Assembly (NCBI GenBank): GCA_051986435.1
Contig: JBPYFM010000155.1
Coordinates: forward strand, 1,548 to 65,547
From: Solirubrobacterales bacterium
GTDB taxonomy: Bacteria > Actinomycetota > Thermoleophilia > Solirubrobacterales > 70-9
Length of the DNA stretch: 64,000 nt
Direction of reading: 5' to 3'
Positions 2,929 through 63,494 of the stretch are shown here, piece after piece (the first letter of the stretch is position 1; every line of letters starts with the position of its first letter). The notes below the pieces were generated by a model that was not told the origin of the DNA, did no database searches, and saw only the letters and a program-made list of their open reading frames with translations. A program made the position numbers and the translations under genes.

Positions 2929-3702
2929 ATGCATGCGATGGAGTCATCCGCGGTGGCAGGGCCCGCCTGGCTGGTCCTGCCGACCTACAACGAGGCGGCC
3001 AACATCGCCGCCATCGTCGAGGCGGCGCGCGCCAACCTTCCCCTTGACGCGCGCATCCTGATCGTCGACGACAACTCACCGGACGGGACCGGCCAGATCG
3101 CCGATCGCCTCGCGGCTGCCGACCAGGGCGTGGAGGTCATGCACCGCGCCGGCAAGGAAGGCCTCGGTCCCGCCTACATCGCGGGTTTCCACCGCGCCAT
3201 CGACGGAGGCGCCGGGTTCGTCCTGCAGATGGACTCCGACTTCTCACACGATCCTGCGGACCTGCCCCGGCTGCTGCGGGCGGCCCAGGACGGCGCGGAC
3301 CTTGTAATCGGCTCCCGCTATGTCGCCGGAGGCGGGGTCACCGACTGGAGCCCGCTGCGCCGCGTGGTCAGTCGCGGCGGCAGTCTCTACGCGAGCCTCG
3401 TCCTGGGCGTCCGCCAGCGCGACCTCACGGGCGGCTTCAAGTGCTTCCGGCGCCGTGTGCTGGAGACGATCGACCTCGACGCGGTCGCCGCCAAGGGCTA
3501 CGTCTTCCAGGTCGAGACGACCTATCGGACGCTGAAGGCGGGATTTACGGTGCGCGAGGTGCCGATTCTCTTCCGCGACCGCCAGGTGGGCGAGTCGAAG
3601 ATGTCCGCAGCGATCGCCGCCGAGGCCACCTGGCAGGTGCCGTTGCTGCGGCGGCGCGTGCGCGACGGGGACCCGCGGACGACCGGCCGGCCGCGGCCAT
3701 GA
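2929..3702 (+). CDS. Polyprenol-phosphate sugar synthase, Ppm1/DPM1-like GT2 (mannose specificity not provable)
   Basis: LVLPTYNEAANI..ILIVDDNSPDGTGQIA..QMDSDFSHDP..GGFKCFRR..FRDRQVGESKMS. ATG at 2929, downstream of the divergent PPTase start. Confidence 0.85.
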   Translation: MHAMESSAVAGPAWLVLPTYNEAANIAAIVEAARANLPLDARILIVDDNSPDGTGQIADRLAAADQGVEVMHRAGKEGLGPAYIAGFHRAIDGGAGFVLQMDSDFSHDPADLPRLLRAAQDGADLVIGSRYVAGGGVTDWSPLRRVVSRGGSLYASLVLGVRQRDLTGGFKCFRRRVLETIDLDAVAAKGYVFQVETTYRTLKAGFTVREVPILFRDRQVGESKMSAAIAAEATWQVPLLRRRVRDGDPRTTGRPRP

Positions 3703-5642
3703 ACGGGGTGAACCTGGAAGGCCTCGCCGCGCGCGCGGCGACGATCGTCGCCGACCGGCGCGTGCGCCTCGGCCTCGCCCTGGTCGGCTTCGGCCTCGTC
3801 ACCGCGATCACCGCGCTGATCGCCCACCCGAAGATGTTCTTCGGCTTCCACGAATACGACGACGAGGGCTACATGCTCACCGCGCTCAAGTCCTTCGTGA
3901 ACCACGGCCACCTCTACGACCAGGTCTTCACCCAGTACGGCCCCTTCTACTACGAGCTCTGGGGTGGCATCTTCTCGATCTTCGGCATCCCGGTCACCCA
4001 CGACGCGGGCCGCAATGCCGTGACCGTGGTCTGGGTCCTTTCGAGCCTCCTCTTCGGGCTCGGCATCCTGAAGATCACCCGCAGCATCGTCCTCGGGCTC
4101 GGCACCCAGATCCTCACCTTCGCGGCGCTCGAAGTGCTGACCAACGAGCCGATGCACCCGGTCAGCCTCATCGCCCTCTTGCTGGCGACGATCGTCGCGA
4201 TCTCGGCGTTCGTCAGCGAGCGCGAATCGCCCTACGCGATGGCCCTGCTCGGCGCCGCGGTGGCGGCGCTGGTGCTGACCAAGATCAACGTCGGCGCCTT
4301 TGCGCTGATCTCGGTCGCGCTCGCGTGCGTGGTCAGCTACCAGGCGCTCTGGAGTCGGCGATGGCCGCGGATCGTGGTGGAGCTGCTGTTCCTCGCGGTG
4401 CCGATCGGATTGATGCTCGGCAAGTTCGGCGAAGGCTGGGCGCGCCACTACGCGTTGCACGTGTTCGCCGCCGCGCTGGCGGTGGTGATCGCGCTACGAG
4501 CCAACAAGCCGGCCCGGCGACCGGGCGGGGAGCTGCGTTGGCTGATCGGCGGCTTCCTCGTCCTCGCCATCGTCTCCTGCGTCGCGATCCTCGGCGCCGG
4601 GACCAGCGTGCATGGGCTGATCGACGGCGTGATTCGCCAGCCGCTGCGCCAGTCGGACGCCTTCACGATCCCGCTCCAACTCTCTCGCCGGCTCTACGCG
4701 ATGGACGTCATCGGGGTTGCCGCCGCGCTGGCGTACTTGTACGCGGCGCGCCGCCGCGGCACCGCCGCGCCGACCCCAGCCTGGCTCGCCGCCTGGTCGC
4801 TCTTCTCGATCGCGGTGGGCTTCACGATGGCCTTCTCGGTCACCGGTCAGATGCTGCCCTTCAACAGCAACGCCCTCTCCGGCTACCAGTTCACGCTGCT
4901 GCCCTTCGTCTGGGTCGCCCTGTTGGTCACCGCGCCGGAGGAGACGCCGCGGGCATCCTTCGCCCGTCTGCTACTGCCGCTGCTGGCCGTGCTGCAGGCG
5001 CTGCACGCGTTCCCGGTGGCGGGCAGCCAGACCCTGCTCGCCGTTGTGCTGATGATCCCGGTCGGGGCGCTCTGCGTCGCCAACGGGGTGCTCGGCCTGC
5101 GGCGCATCGTCGCCGCGCCCGACAGCCTGGCGCTCGGCGGCCTCGCCGTTCTCCTGGTCCTCGTCTTCGGCTGGTTCACCGTCAACGTGTACCTGCGCGA
5201 ACCTCTGAAGGCGGCGCGCGGCACCTATCACTCGAGCGCGCCGAACGCGCTGAACCTGCCGGGGTCCCACGACATCCACCTCGGCAGCGTCGAAGAAGCG
5301 GAAAAGTACGAAGACATCGCCGACACGATGCGCAAGGAATGCCGGGCGACGCAGATGGAGCCAGGGATGGACAGCTTCTACCTCTGGGCCGAACAGGAAC
5401 CGCCGTCGCTGACCGCGACCGGTTGGGAGACGCTGTTCGACGACGAAGCCCAGGAACAGGTGATCGAAGACATCGCGCCGATCGAAGGCCTTTGCCTCCT
5501 GCGCAACAAAGAACGCGCCGCGGGTTGGGGGCTGGGTGAAGGTCCCCTGGTCAAATACCTCGAACATGGCTTTACCTTGATTGGCAAGTGGGGCGAATAC
5601 GAACTGTTGCGCCGCGAAGGGCCGGCGAAGCCCGCGTCGTGA
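3699..5642 (+). CDS. Polytopic membrane protein, probable GT-C-type glycosyltransferase
   Basis: ATG overlaps the upstream stop (ATGA). There are more than 10 hydrophobic segments, an acidic first loop (FHEYDDEGYML) and a soluble C-terminal domain of about 130 aa. The upstream part of ORF 3441.. is an Arg-rich artefact. Confidence 0.65.
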   Translation: MNGVNLEGLAARAATIVADRRVRLGLALVGFGLVTAITALIAHPKMFFGFHEYDDEGYMLTALKSFVNHGHLYDQVFTQYGPFYYELWGGIFSIFGIPVTHDAGRNAVTVVWVLSSLLFGLGILKITRSIVLGLGTQILTFAALEVLTNEPMHPVSLIALLLATIVAISAFVSERESPYAMALLGAAVAALVLTKINVGAFALISVALACVVSYQALWSRRWPRIVVELLFLAVPIGLMLGKFGEGWARHYALHVFAAALAVVIALRANKPARRPGGELRWLIGGFLVLAIVSCVAILGAGTSVHGLIDGVIRQPLRQSDAFTIPLQLSRRLYAMDVIGVAAALAYLYAARRRGTAAPTPAWLAAWSLFSIAVGFTMAFSVTGQMLPFNSNALSGYQFTLLPFVWVALLVTAPEETPRASFARLLLPLLAVLQALHAFPVAGSQTLLAVVLMIPVGALCVANGVLGLRRIVAAPDSLALGGLAVLLVLVFGWFTVNVYLREPLKAARGTYHSSAPNALNLPGSHDIHLGSVEEAEKYEDIADTMRKECRATQMEPGMDSFYLWAEQEPPSLTATGWETLFDDEAQEQVIEDIAPIEGLCLLRNKERAAGWGLGEGPLVKYLEHGFTLIGKWGEYELLRREGPAKPAS

Positions 5643-33680: not shown

Positions 33681-35081
33681 ATGCGACCCGCCCCTCTTCA
33701 CCGGCGACTACTCATCGCGGCGCTGCTCGCGCTCGCCATCCTCCTGGCGACGTCCGCCTCCGCCTCGGCCCTCACCTACGGGCTGAACTGGGACGGCAAT
33801 AACTCCTCGTCGACCGAACTCCTCGACGCGGTCCAGAAGTCGGGGGCGACCGTGTACCACCAGCCGCTCGAATACAACGGGCCGAGTGGGGACTGGACGA
33901 ACAACGACTCGCTGGTCGAAGAAGCGTGGCGGCGGGGGCTGACGATTCTGCCGACGCTGCAGAACGGTACGCAATTCCCTCTGCCGGGCGAACCCGGGCT
34001 GGCGGAATGGGGAGCGTGGCTGCGGGAAGCGGTCGAACGGTACGGCGTCAACGGCAGCTTCTGGGAAGGGAAGGTGAACCCGACGCCGATCACGGCCTGG
34101 GAAGTGTGGAACGAGCCAAACATCAGCGGGGAAGATCCGCGACCCGACGAAGCCGCGAGCTACGGGGCCTTCCTCGCCTACTCCGCCGAACAGATCCAGG
34201 CGGCGTCCCAGGGGAAGGCGGGAGGGCCGACCAACGTCCTCTTCGGCGCGATCAACACTCAGGTGGGCGAAAGCTATGAAGCCTTTCTCGCGGGCGCGGC
34301 GGCCACCGGCGGGCTGGGGCCGGACGTGACCGGGGTGGCGATCCATCCCTACTCGTTCGCGGGCGGCGCGTCGGGCATGGCGGCGGACATCAGCGGCGTG
34401 CGCGGCTACCTCGACACGCTGCCGGAAGGGAGCGGCAAGTCGCTCTGGATCACCGAGGTCGGCTGGCCAACCCATGGCCACGTGCCAAGTGGGGAAACCG
34501 TCGACCCGTCGGAGGCGGCGACGCTCCTGAGCGAATCCCTCGAGTGGATCGAGGCGAACGCGGAAGCGGAGAATATCCAACTGGTCGCCTGGTACAACGT
34601 GCGCGACTTCGGCGGCTCCACCTGGGACGGCTACGCGGGGTTGCAGGCCGAAGACGGCGCCTACGAGCCCGCCTGGTACGCCTTCCAGGAACAGACCGGC
34701 GCCGAACGCTCCGGGGACCACTGGGCCGCCTTCCAGGCCACCACCGGGACGCTCTGGATCTACTCGACCGCCGAGGGCTATCAGGACACCGGCCTGCCGA
34801 TGCTCCCCGGATTGAGCCCGACCGTCGTCGCGCAGCCAGGCGGCGGCGCGCTCGTCTCCTTCCAGGGACCCGACGGCGAACCGACCACCTACTCGACCAG
34901 GACCGGCACCACTGTCGCCGGCCTCGCCGCCGAATCCGATCCCCCGCACCAGAACTTCCTTGTCACCGCCTTCAAGGCCTACATCGGCGCCGTCTGGCCG
35001 GCCTCCGGCGCCGACGGCGCCTTCGGCACCACTGCCCACCTCGCCCCCGGCACCACGCCGAGCGTCTCCACCGTCCCGTGA
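33681..35081 (+). CDS. Secreted clan GH-A glycoside-hydrolase-like protein, paralog 2 of 3, with extra C-terminal domain
   Basis: GAGG-type RBS, then an ATG at 33681. Signal peptide ending ASASA. WEVWNEPNI and ITEVGWPTHG motifs. Confidence 0.7.
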   Translation: MRPAPLHRRLLIAALLALAILLATSASASALTYGLNWDGNNSSSTELLDAVQKSGATVYHQPLEYNGPSGDWTNNDSLVEEAWRRGLTILPTLQNGTQFPLPGEPGLAEWGAWLREAVERYGVNGSFWEGKVNPTPITAWEVWNEPNISGEDPRPDEAASYGAFLAYSAEQIQAASQGKAGGPTNVLFGAINTQVGESYEAFLAGAAATGGLGPDVTGVAIHPYSFAGGASGMAADISGVRGYLDTLPEGSGKSLWITEVGWPTHGHVPSGETVDPSEAATLLSESLEWIEANAEAENIQLVAWYNVRDFGGSTWDGYAGLQAEDGAYEPAWYAFQEQTGAERSGDHWAAFQATTGTLWIYSTAEGYQDTGLPMLPGLSPTVVAQPGGGALVSFQGPDGEPTTYSTRTGTTVAGLAAESDPPHQNFLVTAFKAYIGAVWPASGADGAFGTTAHLAPGTTPSVSTVP

Positions 35082-35086
35082 CCCGT

Positions 35087-35135
35087 GTTGATGGGCCGAA
35101 AACTCCACTATGTCTGGAGTTTTCGGCCCGTCAAC
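35087..35135. repeat. 49-nt palindromic repeat, copy 1 (21-bp arms); probable bidirectional hairpin terminator / REP-like element
   Basis: GTTGATGGGCCGAAAACTCCA-ctatgtc-TGGAGTTTTCGGCCCGTCAAC. It lies 6 nt after the stop of 33681..35081. Other copies are at 45101 and 58792. Confidence 0.8.
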
Positions 35136-35214
35136 ACCGCCGCATGACGGCGCACCTTTCGGGGCAATAGCCTGTTCGGGCCTTGGAGATGACGACGAGA
35201 GCGGGGATGGGCCG

Positions 35215-44236: not shown

Positions 44237-45105
44237 GCCTCGGCGGCATCGAGGCGGGCGGCACGCAGTGGAACTGCGCGATCGGCGACGGCGAGAGCGC
44301 CGACCCGGCGCGGATCGAGACCTTCCCGACCATGACGCCGGCCGAGACGATCGCCCGCGCGGTCGAGTTCTTCGCCGCCGAGCCCGACCTCGAGGCGCTC
44401 GGCGTGGGCCTCTTCGGCCCGGTCGAGGTGCGCCGCGACTCGCCTCGCTGGGGGACGATCCTGACTACGCCGAAGCCGGGCTGGGAAGGCGTCGACGTGG
44501 CGGGCGCGCTCGCCGACGCCCTCCAGGTGCCGATCGCGCTCGACACCGACGTCAACGCCGCCGCGCTCGGCGAGTGGCGCCACGGCGCCGCCCAGGGCCT
44601 CGAGACCTTCGTCTACGTCACGGTCGGCACCGGGATCGGCGGCGGGGTCTTCGCCAACGGGCGTCCGCTCCACGGCCTGCTCCACCCGGAGGTCGGCCAC
44701 ATGAGGGTCCCGCATGATCGTGCCCGCGATCCCTTCGAGGGCTGTTGTCCCTTCCACGGCGACTGTCTCGAGGGCCTCGCCTCGGGGACCGCGATGCGCG
44801 AGCGCTGGGGCCGACCCGGCGAGGAGCTGACCGACCCCGAGGCCTGGGACCTCGAGGCCGAGTACTTGGCCCTCTGCCTCGCCAACGTCGTCATGGTCCT
44901 GTCGGCCGAACGCATCGTCCTCGGCGGCGGCGTCGGCCGCGCCCCCGGCCTGATCGAGCGCGTCCGCACCCGCCTCCAGGAGGCCGTCGGCGGCTACATC
45001 GACGCCCCGGCCCTCCGAGACCCGGCCACCTACCTGGTCCCGCCTGCCCTCGGCCCCCACAGCGGCGTCATCGGCGCCCTCCACCTCGCCAGAACCGCGT
45101 GTTGA
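44233..45105 (+). CDS. ROK-family sugar kinase (fructokinase/glucokinase-like)
   Basis: GGIEAGGTQW, VTVGTGIGGG, and the Zn motif HPEVGHMRV..CPFHGDCLEG. ATGA overlap with the upstream gene. Confidence 0.85.
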   Translation: MSLGGIEAGGTQWNCAIGDGESADPARIETFPTMTPAETIARAVEFFAAEPDLEALGVGLFGPVEVRRDSPRWGTILTTPKPGWEGVDVAGALADALQVPIALDTDVNAAALGEWRHGAAQGLETFVYVTVGTGIGGGVFANGRPLHGLLHPEVGHMRVPHDRARDPFEGCCPFHGDCLEGLASGTAMRERWGRPGEELTDPEAWDLEAEYLALCLANVVMVLSAERIVLGGGVGRAPGLIERVRTRLQEAVGGYIDAPALRDPATYLVPPALGPHSGVIGALHLARTAC

Positions 45106-45149
45106 TGGGCCGAAAACCGCTCTATATCAGCGGTTTTCGGCCCATCAAC
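45101..45149. repeat. 49-nt palindromic repeat, copy 2; probable bidirectional terminator between convergent genes
   Basis: GTTGATGGGCCGAAAACCGCT-ctatatc-AGCGGTTTTCGGCCCATCAAC. The ROK kinase stop codon (45103-45105) lies inside the left arm. Confidence 0.8.
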
Positions 45150-58781: not shown

Positions 58782-58791
58782 CCGCTCGGGT

Positions 58792-58840
58792 GTTGACGGG
58801 CCGAAAACCGCTCTATATCAGCGGTTTTCGGCCCGTCAAC
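58792..58840. repeat. 49-nt palindromic repeat, copy 3; probable terminator
   Basis: GTTGACGGGCCGAAAACCGCT-ctatatc-AGCGGTTTTCGGCCCGTCAAC. It lies 11 nt after the stop of 57633..58781 and 32 nt before the lhr start. Confidence 0.8.
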
Positions 58841-58871
58841 ATGTGGGGGCCGGCGAAGGCCGGCACAAGAG

Positions 58872-61800
58872 GTGCGTAAGATCGATGGGTTGGCGACCAA
58901 GTCGAAACCACGCACCGACTCTGACCCGCTGGCCCCGTTCTCGGCGGCCACGCGGCGCTGGTTCGAAGCCTCCTTCGAGGGGCCGACCGCTGCCCAGGCG
59001 GGCGGCTGGGCGGCGATCTCGGGTGGCGACAACGCGCTGATCTGCGCGCCGACCGGCTCCGGCAAGACGCTCGCGTCCTTCCTCTGGGGCATCGACAAGC
59101 TCGCCCGGGAGCCGGAGCTCGGCACCGGCGTCAAGCTCGTCTACATCTCGCCCCTGAAAGCGCTCTCCTACGACATCGAGCGCAACCTCCGCGCGCCGCT
59201 GCGCGGCATCGGCGCCGACATCTCCGTCGGGCTGCGCACCGGCGACACCTCCCAGAAAGACCGCCGGGCGATGGCGAAAACGCCGCCCGACATCCTCATC
59301 ACCACCCCCGAGTCGCTCTACCTGATGATGAGCTCCTCGGTCCGGGAGATTCTCACCGGCGTCGAGGCGGTGATCGTCGACGAGATCCATGCGGTGGCGC
59401 AGACCAAGCGGGGGAGCCACCTTTCGCTGACCTTGGAGCGGTTGGATCATCTGGTGAGGACTTCGGCGGCGGCGGACACCGAGGGGGACTCGCCGGAACA
59501 ACAGCCGGGAGGTTCCGGCGAGTCCCCCTCGGTGTTCGCGTCCGGGGGCATTCAGAGGATCGGCTTGTCAGCGACGCAGAGGCCTTTGGAGCGGATTGCT
59601 CAGTTCCTGGTGGGGCCTGGGCGCGAGTGCAAGATCGTCGATGCGGGGACGCGGAAAGACCTCGATCTGGAGATCGTGGTGCCGGTCGAGGACATGGCCG
59701 ATCCGGGGGCGCCCGCCTATCCGAGTGAGAACGGGAACGCGCAGCCTTCGGAAATCGAGCCGAGCGCGCACGTGCGCTCGATCTGGCCGGCGATCTACCC
59801 GGAGCTGCTGCGGCTGGTCCAGGAGCACACCTCGACGATCATCTTCGTCAACAACCGGCGGGCGTCGGAGCGCCTGGCGAAGCGGCTGAACGAGCTCGCC
59901 AACGGCGAAGGGGAGCAGGAGCTGCCGGCCACGGAGCATGCTGGGCACGGCGGATCCCCCGGGGACGACTCGCCGGAACAACAGCGGGGAGGTTCCGTCG
60001 AGTCATCCCCGGGGGATCCGCTGCGGTACGTGGAAATTGCACGGGCGCACCATGGGTCGCTCTCGCACGAGGAGCGCATCCTTGTGGAGGAGATGCTGAA
60101 GTCGGGGGAGCTTCCGTGCCTCGTCGCTACTTCGTCGCTGGAGCTCGGCATCGACATGGGGGCGGTGGACCTCGTGATCCAGGTCGAGTCGCCGAAGTCG
60201 GTGACCCGGGGGCTGCAGCGGATCGGGCGCGCCGGGCACGGCATCGGCGAGACCTCCAAAGGCCGGATCTTCCCCAAATACCGCGGCGACCTGCTGGAGT
60301 GCGCGGTGGTCGCGCGGCGCATGCGCGAGGGGGAGATCGAGGAGACGACGATCCCGCAGAACCCGCTCGACGTGCTCGCCCAGCACCTGGTCTCGATGGC
60401 GGCGCTGGACGAGTGGCAGGTCGACGACGTCGAGAAGGTCGTCACCGCCACCGAGTCGTTCCACGACCTCTCGCGCGAGCAGCTCGAGAACGTGCTCGAC
60501 ATGCTCGACGGGCGCTACCCGTCGGACCGCTTCGCCGAGCTGCGCCCGCGGATCGTCTGGGACCGCATGGAGGGGACGATCCACGGCCGCAAAGGCGCCC
60601 GCCAGCTGGTCGTCACCAACGCCGGCACGATTCCCGACCGCGGCCTCTACGGCGTCCACCTGCCCGACGGCCGGCGGGTCGGCGAGCTCGACGAGGAGAT
60701 GGTCTACGAGGCGCGGGCCGGGCAGACCTTCCTGCTCGGCGCCTCGACCTGGCGGATCGAGGAAATCACCCGCGACCGGGTGATCGTCACGCCCGCGCCC
60801 GGCGCGCCCGGGGCGGTGCCGTTCTGGCGCGGGGACGGGGTCGGGCGCCCGGCGGAGCTCGGCCGCGCGATCGGCGAGTTCGCCCGCGAGGCGGTCTCGC
60901 GCGAGCCCACCGCCTTGGCGAAGGAGTACGACCTCGACCAGCGCGCCGCCAACAACCTCGTCTGCTACCTGCGCGAACAGCAGGACGCGACCCGCGTCGT
61001 CCCCTCCGACCAGACGATCGTGGTCGAGCGCTTCCGCGACGAGATCGGCGACTGGCGCCTCTGCGTCCTCTCCCCGTACGGCGGGCGCGTGCACGCCGCC
61101 TGGGGGCTCGCGCTGGCGGCGAAGATCCGCAACGAGCGCGATCTCGAGGCCGACGCGATCTGGTCCGACGACGGCATCGTCATCCACCTGCCCGACGCCG
61201 ACGAGCCGCCGCCCGCCGACCTGGTGCTGGTCGACCCGGCGGAGCTCGAAGACCTGGTCGTGGGGGAGCTCTCCGGCTCGGCACTCTTCGGCGCGCGTTT
61301 CCGCGAGAACGCGTCACGATCGCTCCTGATCCCGCGCGCCTACCCGGGCAAACGCACGCCGCTCTGGCAGCAGCGGCTGAAATCGCAATCTCTCCTCGAA
61401 GTCGCGCGTGACTTTCCACGTTTCCCCGTGGTCCTGGAGACCTACCGAGAGTGCCTGCAGGACGTGCTCGACCTGCCCGCGCTCGTCGACCTGCTGGAAA
61501 AGCTCCACGCCCGGTCGCTCTCGCTGGTCGAGGTGGAGACGCCGACCGCCTCGCCGTTCGCCTCGTCGCTCCTCTTCGACTACGTCGCCACCTATATGTA
61601 TGAGGGGGACACGCCGAACGCCGAGCGGCGCGCGGCGGCGCTGGCGCTCGACCGCGACCTGCTGCGCGAGCTGCTCGGCCAGGAGGAGCTGCGCGAGCTG
61701 ATCGACCCGGAGGCCTTGGAGGAGGTCGAAGCCCAGCTCCAGCACCGCACCGAGGCGGGACAGGCGGGCGACCGCGACGCGCTGCAACAGATCCTCCGCA

Positions 61801-63494
61801 ACCTCGGCGACCTGACCACCGAGGAGGCGGCCGAGCGCGTCGAAGCGCCCTACTCGGCCGAGTCGATGCTGGCGAAGCTGGCCGGCGAGCGGCGGATCGC
61901 GAAGGTGCGGATCGCGGGCGAGGAGCGCTGGATCGCGAGCGAGGACGCGGGGCTCTACCGCGACGCGCTCGGCGTGCCGCCGCCGCCCGGACTGCCGGAG
62001 ACCTTCCTCGCCGACTACCCCGACGCGATGCGGGCGCTGGTCCGCCGTTACGCCCGCACCCACGGCCCGTTCCCGACCGGGCAGCTGTCCCACCGCTACG
62101 GGGTCGACCCCGGCCCGGCGCTGCGCGAGCTGGAGAACGAAGGGGCGCTGGTCCGCGGCGAGCTCCTCCCCGGCGGCACCGAGCGCGAGTGGTGCGACTC
62201 CGACGTCCTCCGCCGCGTGCGGCGCGCCTCGCTCGCGCGTCTGCGCAAGGAGGTCGAGGCGGCCGACCGCACCGAGCTCGCCCGGTTCCTGCCGAGCTGG
62301 CAGAACGTCGACGCCTTCCGCCCCGCCGGCGCCGGCCCCGACCGCCTGCGCGAGGCGCTGGTGCCGCTGCAGGGAGTCGCGCTCACCCCGAAAGTCTGGG
62401 AGACCGATGTGCTGCCGCGCCGCCTCGGCGCCTACTCGCAGAACTGGCTCGACCAGCTCTGCACCAGCGGCGAGCTGATCTGGATCGGCGCCGGCGCCCT
62501 GGGGCGCAGCGACGGCCGCGTCGCGCTCTACTTCCGCGAGGACGTCCGCCTCGCCGGCCCGCCGCCCGCCAACGGCAGGCTGGAGGTCCCGCAGGGCGAG
62601 GTCCACGACGCGATCCGCGAGCGCCTCGCCGCCGGCCCGTCCTTCTGGCTCGACCTCGTCGCCGACATCGACCACCCCGCGGAGGACCTCCACAACGCGC
62701 TCTGGGACCTCGCCTGGGGCGGCGAGGTGACCAACGACGCCTTCGCGCCGCTGCGGGCGCCGCGCCTGCGCGCCGTGCCCCAGACCGAACGGGCGGGGCG
62801 CCGCTTCGCTCGCCGCCGCTCGACCGCGGGCGCCGCCGTCCAGGGTCGCTGGTCCCTGACCGCGCCGATCTTCGCCGGCGCCCCCGGCCCCGGCGCGCGC
62901 CTCCGCGCCCAGGCCGAGCTGATGATGGAGCGCTACGGGATCGTCACCCGCGAGACGGTCCTCGCCGAGGGCGTCCCCGGCGGCTTCTCCACGCTCTACT
63001 CGGAGCTCGGCAACCTCGAGCTCCTCGGCACCGCGCGCCGCGGCTACTTCGTCGAGGGGCTCGGCGGGGCCCAGTTCGCGCTCCCCGGCGCGGTCGAGCG
63101 GCTGCGCTCCCTCCCCGAAGCCCAAGGCGAGTACATGGTCCTGGCGGCGACCGACCCCGCCAACCCCTACGGGGCGTCGCTGCCCTGGCCGAAGCTCGAG
63201 GGCGGCCGGCGCCCCGGCCGCACCCCCGGCGCCTACCTGCTGCTGCGCGACGGCGAGCCCGAGGTCTTCGTCGAGCGCGGCGGCCGCGGCCTGCTGCGCC
63301 TGCGCTCGATGGACGAAGAGGAGCTCGGCGCCGCGATGCAGGCGCTCGCCGACGCCGTCGGCGCCGGCCAGCTCCCCAGGCTGGCGATCGAGAAACTCGA
63401 CGGCGAGGCCGTGATCGGCTCCGGGCACGAGGAGGCCCTGATCGGCGCCGGCTTCAGCCGCGGCCCCCGCAAACTGACCGCCTCCGCGCGATAG
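58872..63494 (+). CDS. lhr: Lhr-type large ATP-dependent DEAH-box helicase
   Basis: ICAPTGSGKTLA (motif I), VIVDEIHAV (motif II), IGLSAT, ARAHHGSLSHEER and VATSSLELGIDMG motifs. The 1540-aa length is typical of long Lhr. Confidence 0.9.
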   Translation: MRKIDGLATKSKPRTDSDPLAPFSAATRRWFEASFEGPTAAQAGGWAAISGGDNALICAPTGSGKTLASFLWGIDKLAREPELGTGVKLVYISPLKALSYDIERNLRAPLRGIGADISVGLRTGDTSQKDRRAMAKTPPDILITTPESLYLMMSSSVREILTGVEAVIVDEIHAVAQTKRGSHLSLTLERLDHLVRTSAAADTEGDSPEQQPGGSGESPSVFASGGIQRIGLSATQRPLERIAQFLVGPGRECKIVDAGTRKDLDLEIVVPVEDMADPGAPAYPSENGNAQPSEIEPSAHVRSIWPAIYPELLRLVQEHTSTIIFVNNRRASERLAKRLNELANGEGEQELPATEHAGHGGSPGDDSPEQQRGGSVESSPGDPLRYVEIARAHHGSLSHEERILVEEMLKSGELPCLVATSSLELGIDMGAVDLVIQVESPKSVTRGLQRIGRAGHGIGETSKGRIFPKYRGDLLECAVVARRMREGEIEETTIPQNPLDVLAQHLVSMAALDEWQVDDVEKVVTATESFHDLSREQLENVLDMLDGRYPSDRFAELRPRIVWDRMEGTIHGRKGARQLVVTNAGTIPDRGLYGVHLPDGRRVGELDEEMVYEARAGQTFLLGASTWRIEEITRDRVIVTPAPGAPGAVPFWRGDGVGRPAELGRAIGEFAREAVSREPTALAKEYDLDQRAANNLVCYLREQQDATRVVPSDQTIVVERFRDEIGDWRLCVLSPYGGRVHAAWGLALAAKIRNERDLEADAIWSDDGIVIHLPDADEPPPADLVLVDPAELEDLVVGELSGSALFGARFRENASRSLLIPRAYPGKRTPLWQQRLKSQSLLEVARDFPRFPVVLETYRECLQDVLDLPALVDLLEKLHARSLSLVEVETPTASPFASSLLFDYVATYMYEGDTPNAERRAAALALDRDLLRELLGQEELRELIDPEALEEVEAQLQHRTEAGQAGDRDALQQILRNLGDLTTEEAAERVEAPYSAESMLAKLAGERRIAKVRIAGEERWIASEDAGLYRDALGVPPPPGLPETFLADYPDAMRALVRRYARTHGPFPTGQLSHRYGVDPGPALRELENEGALVRGELLPGGTEREWCDSDVLRRVRRASLARLRKEVEAADRTELARFLPSWQNVDAFRPAGAGPDRLREALVPLQGVALTPKVWETDVLPRRLGAYSQNWLDQLCTSGELIWIGAGALGRSDGRVALYFREDVRLAGPPPANGRLEVPQGEVHDAIRERLAAGPSFWLDLVADIDHPAEDLHNALWDLAWGGEVTNDAFAPLRAPRLRAVPQTERAGRRFARRRSTAGAAVQGRWSLTAPIFAGAPGPGARLRAQAELMMERYGIVTRETVLAEGVPGGFSTLYSELGNLELLGTARRGYFVEGLGGAQFALPGAVERLRSLPEAQGEYMVLAATDPANPYGASLPWPKLEGGRRPGRTPGAYLLLRDGEPEVFVERGGRGLLRLRSMDEEELGAAMQALADAVGAGQLPRLAIEKLDGEAVIGSGHEEALIGAGFSRGPRKLTASAR
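59476..59535. repeat. 60-nt perfect palindrome (24-bp arms, 12-nt loop) inside the lhr coding sequence, copy A
   Basis: ACACCGAGGGGGACTCGCCGGAAC-aacagccgggag-GTTCCGGCGAGTCCCCCTCGGTGT. It is translated as part of ..DTEGDSPEQQPGGSGESPSV.. Confidence 0.85.
59950..60021. repeat. 72-nt near-perfect palindrome (30-nt arms, 28/30 paired, same 12-nt loop class) inside the lhr coding sequence, copy B
   Basis: GCGGATCCCCCGGGGACGACTCGCCGGAAC-aacagcggggag-GTTCCGTCGAGTCATCCCCGGGGGATCCGC. The 38-nt core is 36/38 identical to copy A. Confidence 0.85.

Follow-up and report, generated by a model that had tools for sequence, protein, structure and literature searches.

The stretch of DNA analysed here (the window, 64,000 nucleotides (nt) of contig JBPYFM010000155.1 from a Solirubrobacterales bacterium) contains lhr, a gene for a large superfamily-2 helicase of 1540 amino acids (aa) at 58872-63494 on the + strand, and two long hairpins, copies A and B, lie in frame within this gene. 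The open reading frame (ORF), identified by its Lhr motifs, is intact across both inserts, has a third-position GC content (GC3) of 0.94 and matches the Pfam families DEAD, Helicase_C, WHD_Lhr and DEAD_assoc. Its best relatives are Lhr proteins from Solirubrobacterales metagenome-assembled genomes (MAGs), with at most 88% identity, and it matches the solved Lhr of Mycobacterium smegmatis (PDB 5V9X, 7LHL) at E = 4e-146. Our comparison with other genomes shows that the two hairpins belong to a dispersed family of 66-nt elements in Solirubrobacterales, recognisable by the loop AACAGCGGGGAG, and suggests that the hairpin rather than the encoded peptide is what has been constrained.

Two hairpins in frame within lhr

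Copy A contains a perfect inverted repeat with arms of 24 nt (59476-59499 / 59512-59535); its pairing reaches 28 nt with one mismatch and 33 nt at 91% (59467-59499 / 59512-59544). The arms of copy B (59950-59979 / 59992-60021) are 30 nt long and complementary at 28 positions (93%). Both copies have a loop of 12 nt, at 59500-59511 and 59980-59991, respectively. Their 38-nt cores differ at only two positions (36/38 identical), and identity over 54 nt is 85%. A search of the 64-kb window for the core with up to three mismatches gave no third match (0.00 expected from shuffles), and a covariance model of the family likewise assigned family-level scores in the window to copies A and B only (82.1 and 79.6 bits). 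When single-stranded, each copy folds into one long stem, with RNA folding energies of -70.1 kcal/mol for A (z = -10.6) and -59.9 kcal/mol for B (z = -8.2), far beyond shuffled controls; the corresponding DNA folding energies are -40.2 and -34.2.

Both copies can be described in terms of the canonical unit of the family, which consists of two 27-nt arms and the 12-nt loop. The unit of copy A spans 59473-59538 on the + strand (covariance model 82.1 bits, E = 2e-17), with the left arm at 59473-59499, the loop AACAGCCGGGAG at 59500-59511, one change away from the family loop, and the right arm at 59512-59538; pairing extends outwards over 59467-59544. It is translated as ..TEGDSPEQQPGGSGESPSV.., approximately Lhr residues 201-222, and the insert peptide ..GDSPEQQPGGSGESP.. 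falls between the DEIH and IGLSAT motifs. The unit of copy B spans 59953-60018, also on the + strand (79.6 bits, E = 9e-17), with the left arm at 59953-59979, the family consensus loop AACAGCGGGGAG at 59980-59991 and the right arm at 59992-60018. Its pairing extends over 59950-60021, the two mismatches being stem positions 7 and 14, and its translation ..GSPGDDSPEQQRGGSVESSPGD.. corresponds to residues ~361-382, with the insert peptide ..DDSPEQQRGGSVESSPG.. ahead of ARAHHGS. One predicted insert-encoded peptide is DSPEQQPGGSGESPSVFASGGIQR.

A preliminary description of this DNA, made from the letters alone, had reported the arms, the shared core and the in-frame position of both peptides relative to these motifs, all of which we confirm; we found no further match to the core in the window, and the RNA folding that it proposed as a check gave the strong stems described above. 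It had delimited the elements as 60 and 72 nt. These lengths are indeed multiples of three, but the natural unit is 66 nt.

A family of elements in Solirubrobacterales

To survey other genomes we used the search pattern TCNNCNGANNAACAGCSGGGAGNNTCNNNNGA, built from the loop and a few stem positions conserved among the orthologues, for which less than one chance match is expected in a collection holding one genome per species. The pattern fixes the loop as AACAGC[G/C]GGGAG and misses variants, and the family counts given here rest on the matches listed, of which there are at least 119. These copies occur in at least 86 genomes, all of them Solirubrobacterales/Thermoleophilia MAGs, with up to three positions per genome among the matches listed and several copies per chromosome. 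The element-bearing assemblies, more than 80 in number, are independent, come from different projects and include complete Solirubrobacterales chromosomes such as OY970074.1 and OY970392.1; many of the MAGs derive from the Microflora Danica metagenomes. Clustering by flanking sequence grouped 124 copies into 32 clusters, corresponding to about 31 loci among the matches listed. Second copies were rare in the 1.0 Mb of DNA fetched as 8-kb loci. In one MAG (L016), three members lie within 2.3 kb (2222-2300, 3367-3445 and 4460-4539), two of which have a 13-nt loop variant that the pattern misses, so that the local density can far exceed the pattern census.

None of the viral contigs or plasmids scanned contained a copy, which gives no indication of a phage or a plasmid as vehicle. 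Rfam 15, searched in permissive mode, returned only generic hairpin matches to microRNA precursors, with at most 36 bits compared to gathering thresholds of 53-268. We found no account of such elements in Thermoleophilia in the literature searched, and the family with the AACAGCGGGGAG loop has apparently not been described so far.

Anatomy of the unit and covariation of the stem

A gap-free alignment of 118 copies, whose arms typically measure 26-30 nt, defines the unit. Since pairing stops after stem position 27 across the family (59% at position 28 and ~40% further out), the natural unit is 27 + 12 + 27 = 66 nt, the length of 22 codons. The search pattern leaves stem positions 11-27 free, and these are 81-99% Watson-Crick paired, each with three to four pair types and, except for position 12, at 90% or more. 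Paired cells make up 93.9% of the stem; shuffles reach 74.0%, and sliding the register gives 44-57%. Double-sided changes number 628 versus 157 expected, and the covariation score is 0.546 versus 0.151 (0/500 shuffles). The covariance model also recovers relatives that keep only the loop core ..GCGGGGAGG.

Stem position 7 is paired in just 30% of the copies. Within orthologous clusters it shows combinations such as GG, GC, CT, TC and CG, while its neighbours stay paired. This free position disfavours a blanket templated correction from arm to arm as the source of the palindromy: such correction would erase the mismatch at position 7, and pairing elsewhere therefore looks constrained position by position. 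Among the mismatches, G-T wobbles are not enriched over A-C, so the data do not decide whether RNA or DNA is the relevant form.

Next to the loop, a GGAAC..GTTCC variant occurs in 12/117 copies and is concordant within genomes (p = 0.008): both copies in the window, both DAIQOT01 copies and both DATJWW01 copies carry GGAAC. The variant is found at lhr, cysS and prmA sites at which other lineages have GGAGC. This concordance hints at concerted change or at co-evolution with a protein that reads the element.

Location of the copies

Copies were assigned to genes or gene ends using codon log-odds and stop-codon mapping, tblastn with Lhr, extraction of host ORFs and Pfam; neighbours at gene ends were named mostly via Pfam and otherwise via flanking translations. 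Among the matches listed, about 12 of the ~31 loci (~40%) are genic and in frame, in linkers or loops. The commonest host in the sample is Lhr (22 fetched copies at its two sites plus the two in the window), and further copies lie in cysteinyl-tRNA synthetase (14 copies, between the catalytic and DALR domains) and PrmA (13 antisense and 3 sense). Other genic hosts are a radical-SAM/PqqD protein, FO synthase, a PabB/TrpE-like enzyme, CofE, ComEC, BirA and a membrane protein. Wherever an insert is bracketed by two Pfam domains, it falls between them.

Every genic copy preserves the frame of its host, and the frame used is free of stop codons, which at the sequence level argues for translation of the inserts and against their being bypassed. 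At least four of the six combinations of frame and orientation are translated (QQRGG, NSGE, LPAV and PPRCC). Because several frames and orientations are used, there is no single conserved peptide, and for the same reason the palindromy is a property of the DNA and not a by-product of amino-acid repeats; the latter, together with a core found nowhere else, is what the preliminary description had named as counting against an inserted element.

The non-genic loci are gene ends, where the stop codon of the upstream gene lies 0-14 nt before the element or within its left arm. The largest such cluster, from 16 species, is the trpB-trpA junction, at which the element encodes the last residues of TrpB and its TGA. 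At this junction (L031 6594-6663, L046 862-929 and 14 orthologous loci) the left arm reads ..GTGACTCG.. or ..ATGACTCG.., and trpA starts a few bases past the right arm. Other gene-end loci lie between recO and a gene for an HD hydrolase, between epimerase and MBL hydrolase genes, between dnaK and grpE, after gatB and upstream of a gene for a RarA-like ATPase. Regarding orientation, about 10 loci lie behind a co-directional gene and have the loop on the sense strand, two are antisense, two convergent and three divergent.

Most intergenic loci share the position of an intrinsic terminator directly after a stop codon; however, a T-rich tail follows the hairpin in only 2/117 copies, and the element is thus not a classic intrinsic terminator. 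A role of the loop GGAGG as Shine-Dalgarno sequence of the downstream gene was likewise rejected, since it lies at least 27 nt from the end of the element and thus too far away. Directly 3' of the right arm, several orthologous clusters show conserved hexamers that are -10-box-like or contain a start codon, as in the right flanks of L007, L032 and L035 (..CTCCTTATGATCG), L012, L036 and L052 (..CCCTCATACT) and L023, L044 and L055 (..CCCATAGGCT). The hairpin may here border on promoters or start codons that belong to the gene downstream.

Occupancy of the Lhr linkers

The presence and absence of the element could be followed in an alignment of 120 Lhr fragments from a protein search. Site A was defined as the segment between ..LERLDHLV and QRIGLSAT and site B as that between ATEHAGH and VEIARAHHGS; occupancy of site B was read from the alignment itself. 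The linker at site A ranges from 4 to 61 residues, with 12 aa or fewer in 57/120 and 25 aa or more in 36/120 fragments, and in several species the 66-nt unit makes up nearly the entire linker. A peptide of the QQRGG type occurs at site A in 10/120 orthologues (e.g. ASAEQQRGGSGESSPD and GSADQQRGGSGDPSPD), and others bear unlike inserts (SSPDNSLGGSGEDSPD; AGDPPPPAVAKASSGVVPPTAPPA). At site B, the baseline is the short HEDTGEPLEQ or nothing; the peptide type of the window is present in P0002, P0011 and P0052, and at least three further types of insert occur. Occupancy of the two sites differs even among relatives that are 85-90% identical to the window protein.

The DNA of five Lhr orthologues agrees with this picture. 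Filled sites are hairpins of the family design (L001 and L002 at A, L003 at B), whereas site A of L123 and L003 and site B of L124 and L123, which are empty, contain no palindrome. The family loop is retained in four of five Lhr inserts that were found through protein homology alone, including those of L001, L002 and L003. An ancestral linker of non-palindromic DNA shared by all orthologues, the other outcome that the preliminary description had held against an insertion, is thus not what we observe: site A is short in 57/120, and the filled sites for which DNA was fetched are family hairpins.

Structural comparison places both inserts in tolerant segments. Alignment to the M. smegmatis structure 5V9X splits exactly at site A (..LDQLLDTPA|QRIGLSAT), where insert A has no counterpart; at site B the M. 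smegmatis protein has a linker of its own, which is about as long but does not align. In an AlphaFold2 model covering residues 1-576 (mean pLDDT, the predicted local distance difference test score, 71), insert A is coil between a helix (179-203) and a strand (228-233), and insert B lies in coil with pLDDT below 50 across residues 350-383. The Lhr inserts occupy two tolerant linkers, one after the motif II helix and one between the two RecA-like domains.

In other species the same linkers also hold other hairpins, at 11077-11158 of L002 (site B) and 11072-11133 of L001. One with 35-nt arms and the loop CTCCACATCTTT scores 66 bits on the antisense strand, which marks it as a diverged relative of the family. 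Further linker inserts encode AGDPPPPAVAKASSG.. or GGTSPEEALATGRGGGSP.., and other insert peptides are found in P0044-P0050 and P0060 (site A) and in P0045, P0046, P0049 and P0055 (site B). The two linkers resemble hotspots used by several element families. Lhr has a third clade-specific segment (window ~59690-59780, residues ~274-302, ..DMADPGAPAYPSENGNAQPSEIEPSAHVRS..), which has no M. smegmatis counterpart either; it is low-confidence coil in the AlphaFold2 model, is kept among Solirubrobacterales orthologues and is not palindromic. All five Lhr MAG contigs fetched by protein identity (L001, L002, L003, L123 and L124) end within lhr, which may reflect selection bias, all listed protein matches being shorter than 1000 aa, or short-read assemblies broken at repeats.

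Inheritance and turnover

Identity of the outer arms (positions 11-27) was 0.649 when two copies shared a site but came from different genomes (n = 338), 0.596 when they came from different loci of one genome (n = 38, p = 0.04 versus unrelated pairs) and 0.557 for unrelated pairs. A divergence of ~35% at a site together with ~94% pairing implies compensatory evolution and no recent burst. Recent transposition, which would leave near-identical copies within a genome, is rejected by the within-genome value of 0.60, below that of orthologous copies.

Two sites have the element in either orientation. In PrmA, L008, L029 and L030, among others, carry one orientation and L017, L096 and L103 the other, with the arms in the same register and the peptides RRS-LPAV-AP versus RRS-NSGE-AP; at the junction between recO and the HD hydrolase gene, the L007 cluster differs in the same way from L094 and L119. 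These cases would fit either a loop that has inverted between the arms or separate insertions, and they suggest that the 12-nt loop can flip between its inverted arms.

We also searched for traces of a mobility mechanism. Between the two inverted copies of L060 and among ~30 neighbouring genes at 18 further loci we found housekeeping genes only, and none of the neighbours examined encodes a transposase, HUH protein or integrase. With a slack of 3 nt per boundary, the longest flanking direct repeat was 0-3 nt in 103/117 copies, and the comparison of filled with empty Lhr sites showed no visible target-site duplication. A GTAG tetranucleotide lies near an end in 4/117 copies and CGTC in 12/117, at no fixed position.

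Comparison with known systems

The preliminary description compared the lhr inserts with Rickettsia palindromic elements (RPEs), reported by Ogata et al. (2000, 2002) and summarised in PMC10969869 as elements of ~100-150 bp in frame within genes. By that account, the likeness is supported by our data: both are dispersed palindrome families confined to one clade, with many translated copies in frame in unrelated housekeeping genes, at sites where the fold tolerates them, and neither has a known associated transposase. By the same account, our element differs in its unit of 66 nt, built as one nearly perfect stem of 27 bp that covaries extensively and carries a conserved loop at its apex, as well as in its host, a high-GC, free-living order of soil actinobacteria versus AT-rich obligate intracellular alphaproteobacteria. 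Unlike RPEs as portrayed there, it is read in several frames and orientations with no single peptide, and many copies overlap the 3' ends of genes and can supply the stop codon. It thus shares with RPEs the dispersed repeat and the in-frame position in unrelated genes, and it departs from RPE-1 to RPE-10 in size and host; judged from the composition, relatedness in sequence is very unlikely.

Repetitive extragenic palindromes (REPs) and their doublets (REPINs) are associated with RAYT proteins, and their vertical inheritance and long persistence have been stressed (10.1101/2022.05.22.493013; PMC3116915). Our family resembles them in being GC-rich, of similar size, often located between co-directional genes of an operon, vertically inherited and conserved in structure more than in sequence. 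In contrast to REPs, whose palindromes bear a conserved GTAG or CGTC as a tag at one end (PMC3733652), it lacks a terminal tag, has no RAYT-like gene in the neighbourhoods examined and is neither extragenic, with ~40% of its loci genic, nor high-copy, with apparently tens and not hundreds of copies; moreover, its loop is conserved and not its arms. Miniature inverted-repeat transposable elements, or MITEs, such as ERIC, BOX, Correia and the Anabaena MITEs can form occasional in-frame fusions (PMC10969869, PMC2229807). Like MITEs, our elements are small, non-autonomous inverted repeats between and within genes and have terminal inverted repeats; however, we found no target-site duplication and, in the neighbourhoods, no parent insertion sequence. 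They are also far shorter, and their pairing is kept by compensation, whereas typical MITEs decay. In size, single stem and loop, long compensation, overlap with stop codons and host clade, the family differs from RPEs, REPINs and in-frame MITEs alike.

Hairpin inserts that the ribosome bypasses are known from T4 gene 60 and from the 'byp' elements of Magnusiomyces mitochondria. These are likewise GC-rich mobile hairpins in coding genes, but the elements described here keep the frame and are stop-free.

Discussion

Our analysis favours a view of the AACAGCGGGGAG-loop element as a clade-restricted, old, low-copy and mostly vertically inherited hairpin, in which the hairpin and not the peptide is constrained; we assign this a probability of about 0.75. 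The element sits where extra sequence is harmless, either in protein linkers at the surface or between domains, to which it adds ~22 disordered residues, or at the ends of genes and the junctions of operons, where the last codons and the stop codon can come from it. It would have spread by copy-and-paste or insertion at the DNA level, a process that is presumably rare today, and most copies would be inherited vertically at a site, with occasional loss, gain, replacement by other hairpins or flips of orientation. Compensatory stem changes, the free position 7 and the constant loop suggest that the conserved entity is a nucleic-acid hairpin. The continuing constraint on structure and loop implies a reader acting in trans, most likely a protein that recognises the loop on the folded DNA or RNA hairpin and still 'sees' the elements. 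Such a constraint would serve either the element, by enabling mobility, or the host, through RNA processing, stability or pausing.

Several observations weigh against this view. Neither an enzyme nor a target-site duplication nor a donor element was found, and mobility is therefore deduced from distribution only. Presence and absence at a site could reflect repeated precise loss rather than gain. In the large alignment, the search pattern itself partly imposes the constancy seen in the loop and at stem positions 3, 4, 9 and 10, and some Lhr orthologue peptides imply altered loops (KHRGG, QRRGG and NSLGG). As the pattern misses variants, the copy number per genome, apparently in the tens, is approximate. 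Finally, long persistence with compensation, low copy number and a bias of ~10 versus 2 loci towards the sense strand downstream of genes can be explained by a host function no less well than by selfish DNA.

The last point leads to the alternative that the copies are host-functional, cis-acting RNA or DNA hairpins with a protein-binding loop, serving as sites of processing or stability, as pause sites or as non-canonical terminators; the hairpins in Lhr would then be regulatory and not parasitic. We regard this as possible but rather doubtful, and it is compatible with a mobile origin. Compensatory evolution at orthologous sites across species, with ~94% pairing, speaks for such a function, and the freedom of position 7 argues against simple arm-to-arm conversion as its cause. 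The conserved loop contains a Shine-Dalgarno-like GGGGAGG, which is likewise present in copies identified without the pattern, and relatives keep the core GCGGGGAGG. Low copy number, housekeeping neighbours without mobility genes, and intergenic copies that abut stop codons with the loop mostly on the sense strand of the upstream gene point in the same direction. However, many close relatives possess the same genes with empty sites, and unrelated hairpin types occupy these sites in other species. Both orientations at one site would alter the loop of the RNA, and G-U wobbles do not exceed A-C mismatches, unlike what might be expected for an RNA helix. The scarcity of T-tracts (2/117) and the lack of an Rfam family do not favour a known class of RNA element either. 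In its most specific form, this alternative posits ~30 protein-recognised stem-loops, each having an invariant Shine-Dalgarno-like loop and, 7 bp below the loop, a mismatch that is tolerated, through which a Solirubrobacterales factor might process, pause or stabilise housekeeping mRNAs, including those of lhr, cysS, prmA, trpBA, recO, dnaK-grpE, gatB and others; we put this forward only tentatively. Stems of 27 bp are long enough for RNase III. If true, this form of the alternative would represent a regulatory structure embedded in translated coding sequence and kept there for a long time by compensation.

REPIN-RAYT systems are found in Pseudomonas and Enterobacteria, and by analogy the hairpin could be a REP doublet moved by a RAYT, a single-copy HUH/Y1 protein that reads the folded hairpin. 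The REPIN-like size, vertical inheritance over long times and conservation of structure above sequence agree with such a system, and the genome-specific variant next to the loop could mean co-evolution with the recognition protein. Yet no Y1/HUH gene lies beside the ~31 loci, as judged from flanking genes only, where a RAYT would normally be flanked by REPs. The missing GTAG/CGTC tag, the ~40% of loci that are genic while REPs are extragenic, the conservation of the loop instead of the arms, and copies seemingly in the tens and not the hundreds likewise speak against it, and we consider it unlikely.

An event internal to lhr, by which one copy arose from the other through duplication or gene conversion and the palindromy from a repetitive peptide, is highly improbable. 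Copies A and B do have the less common GGAAC...GTTCC variant and a 36/38 core in common and are the only copies in 64 kb; however, their outer arms differ beyond the core, GGAAC also occurs in non-lhr copies of related genomes, different frames and orientations are translated, and the 66-nt unit at ~30 other loci, in unrelated genes and between genes, rules such an event out. An assembly or sequencing artefact from chimeric fold-back reads, to which only the many lhr MAG contigs ending in lhr could point, and these not specifically, has a negligible probability and is ruled out by recurrence in more than 80 independent assemblies, including complete chromosomes, and also by host frames that are always kept and by site-specific divergence.

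The element as an old hairpin under structural constraint modifies the interpretation of the preliminary description, which had proposed an analogue of selfish palindromic repeats. That the palindrome is a family tolerated in coding sequence holds, as its core recurs at ~31 loci, both genic and intergenic; this family, though, looks old, low-copy and structure-constrained and does not look like an actively proliferating repeat. The link to a helicase, to which that description had drawn attention, does not extend to the other hosts, which are unrelated enzymes, and the sites probably just represent permissive loops.

Palindromes in coding sequence have been seen as a peculiarity of Rickettsia, and the family described here represents a clear second system in free-living, high-GC soil Actinomycetota. 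Compared with RPEs it has a simpler and sharper anatomy, consisting of one stem of 27 bp with one conserved loop and a single free position, and its orthologous copies keep pairing in dozens of species while encoding different peptides, which provides an unusually clean comparative signal. The family raises the questions of whether such elements are kept for their own sake or for that of the host, how ribosomes, RNase III and replication handle hairpins of -60 to -70 kcal/mol in essential genes, where the element is often located, and how mobile hairpins give rise to new protein linkers. In practice, gene models and alignments from Solirubrobacterales MAGs become inflated and fragmented through the inserts, which could also act as lineage markers.

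A second palindrome family in the window

The window contains a second, unrelated palindrome family with three copies (35085-35137, 45101-45149 and 58791-58841). Its arms of 21-23 nt (GTTGAYGGGCCGAAAAC..) enclose a 7-nt loop, CTATATC or CTATGTC, and reach only generic-hairpin scores of 24-30 bits with the covariance model. The copies adjoin or overlap the stop codons of + strand ORFs ending at 35081, 45105 and 58781, and the third lies ~30 nt 5' of the lhr start codon.

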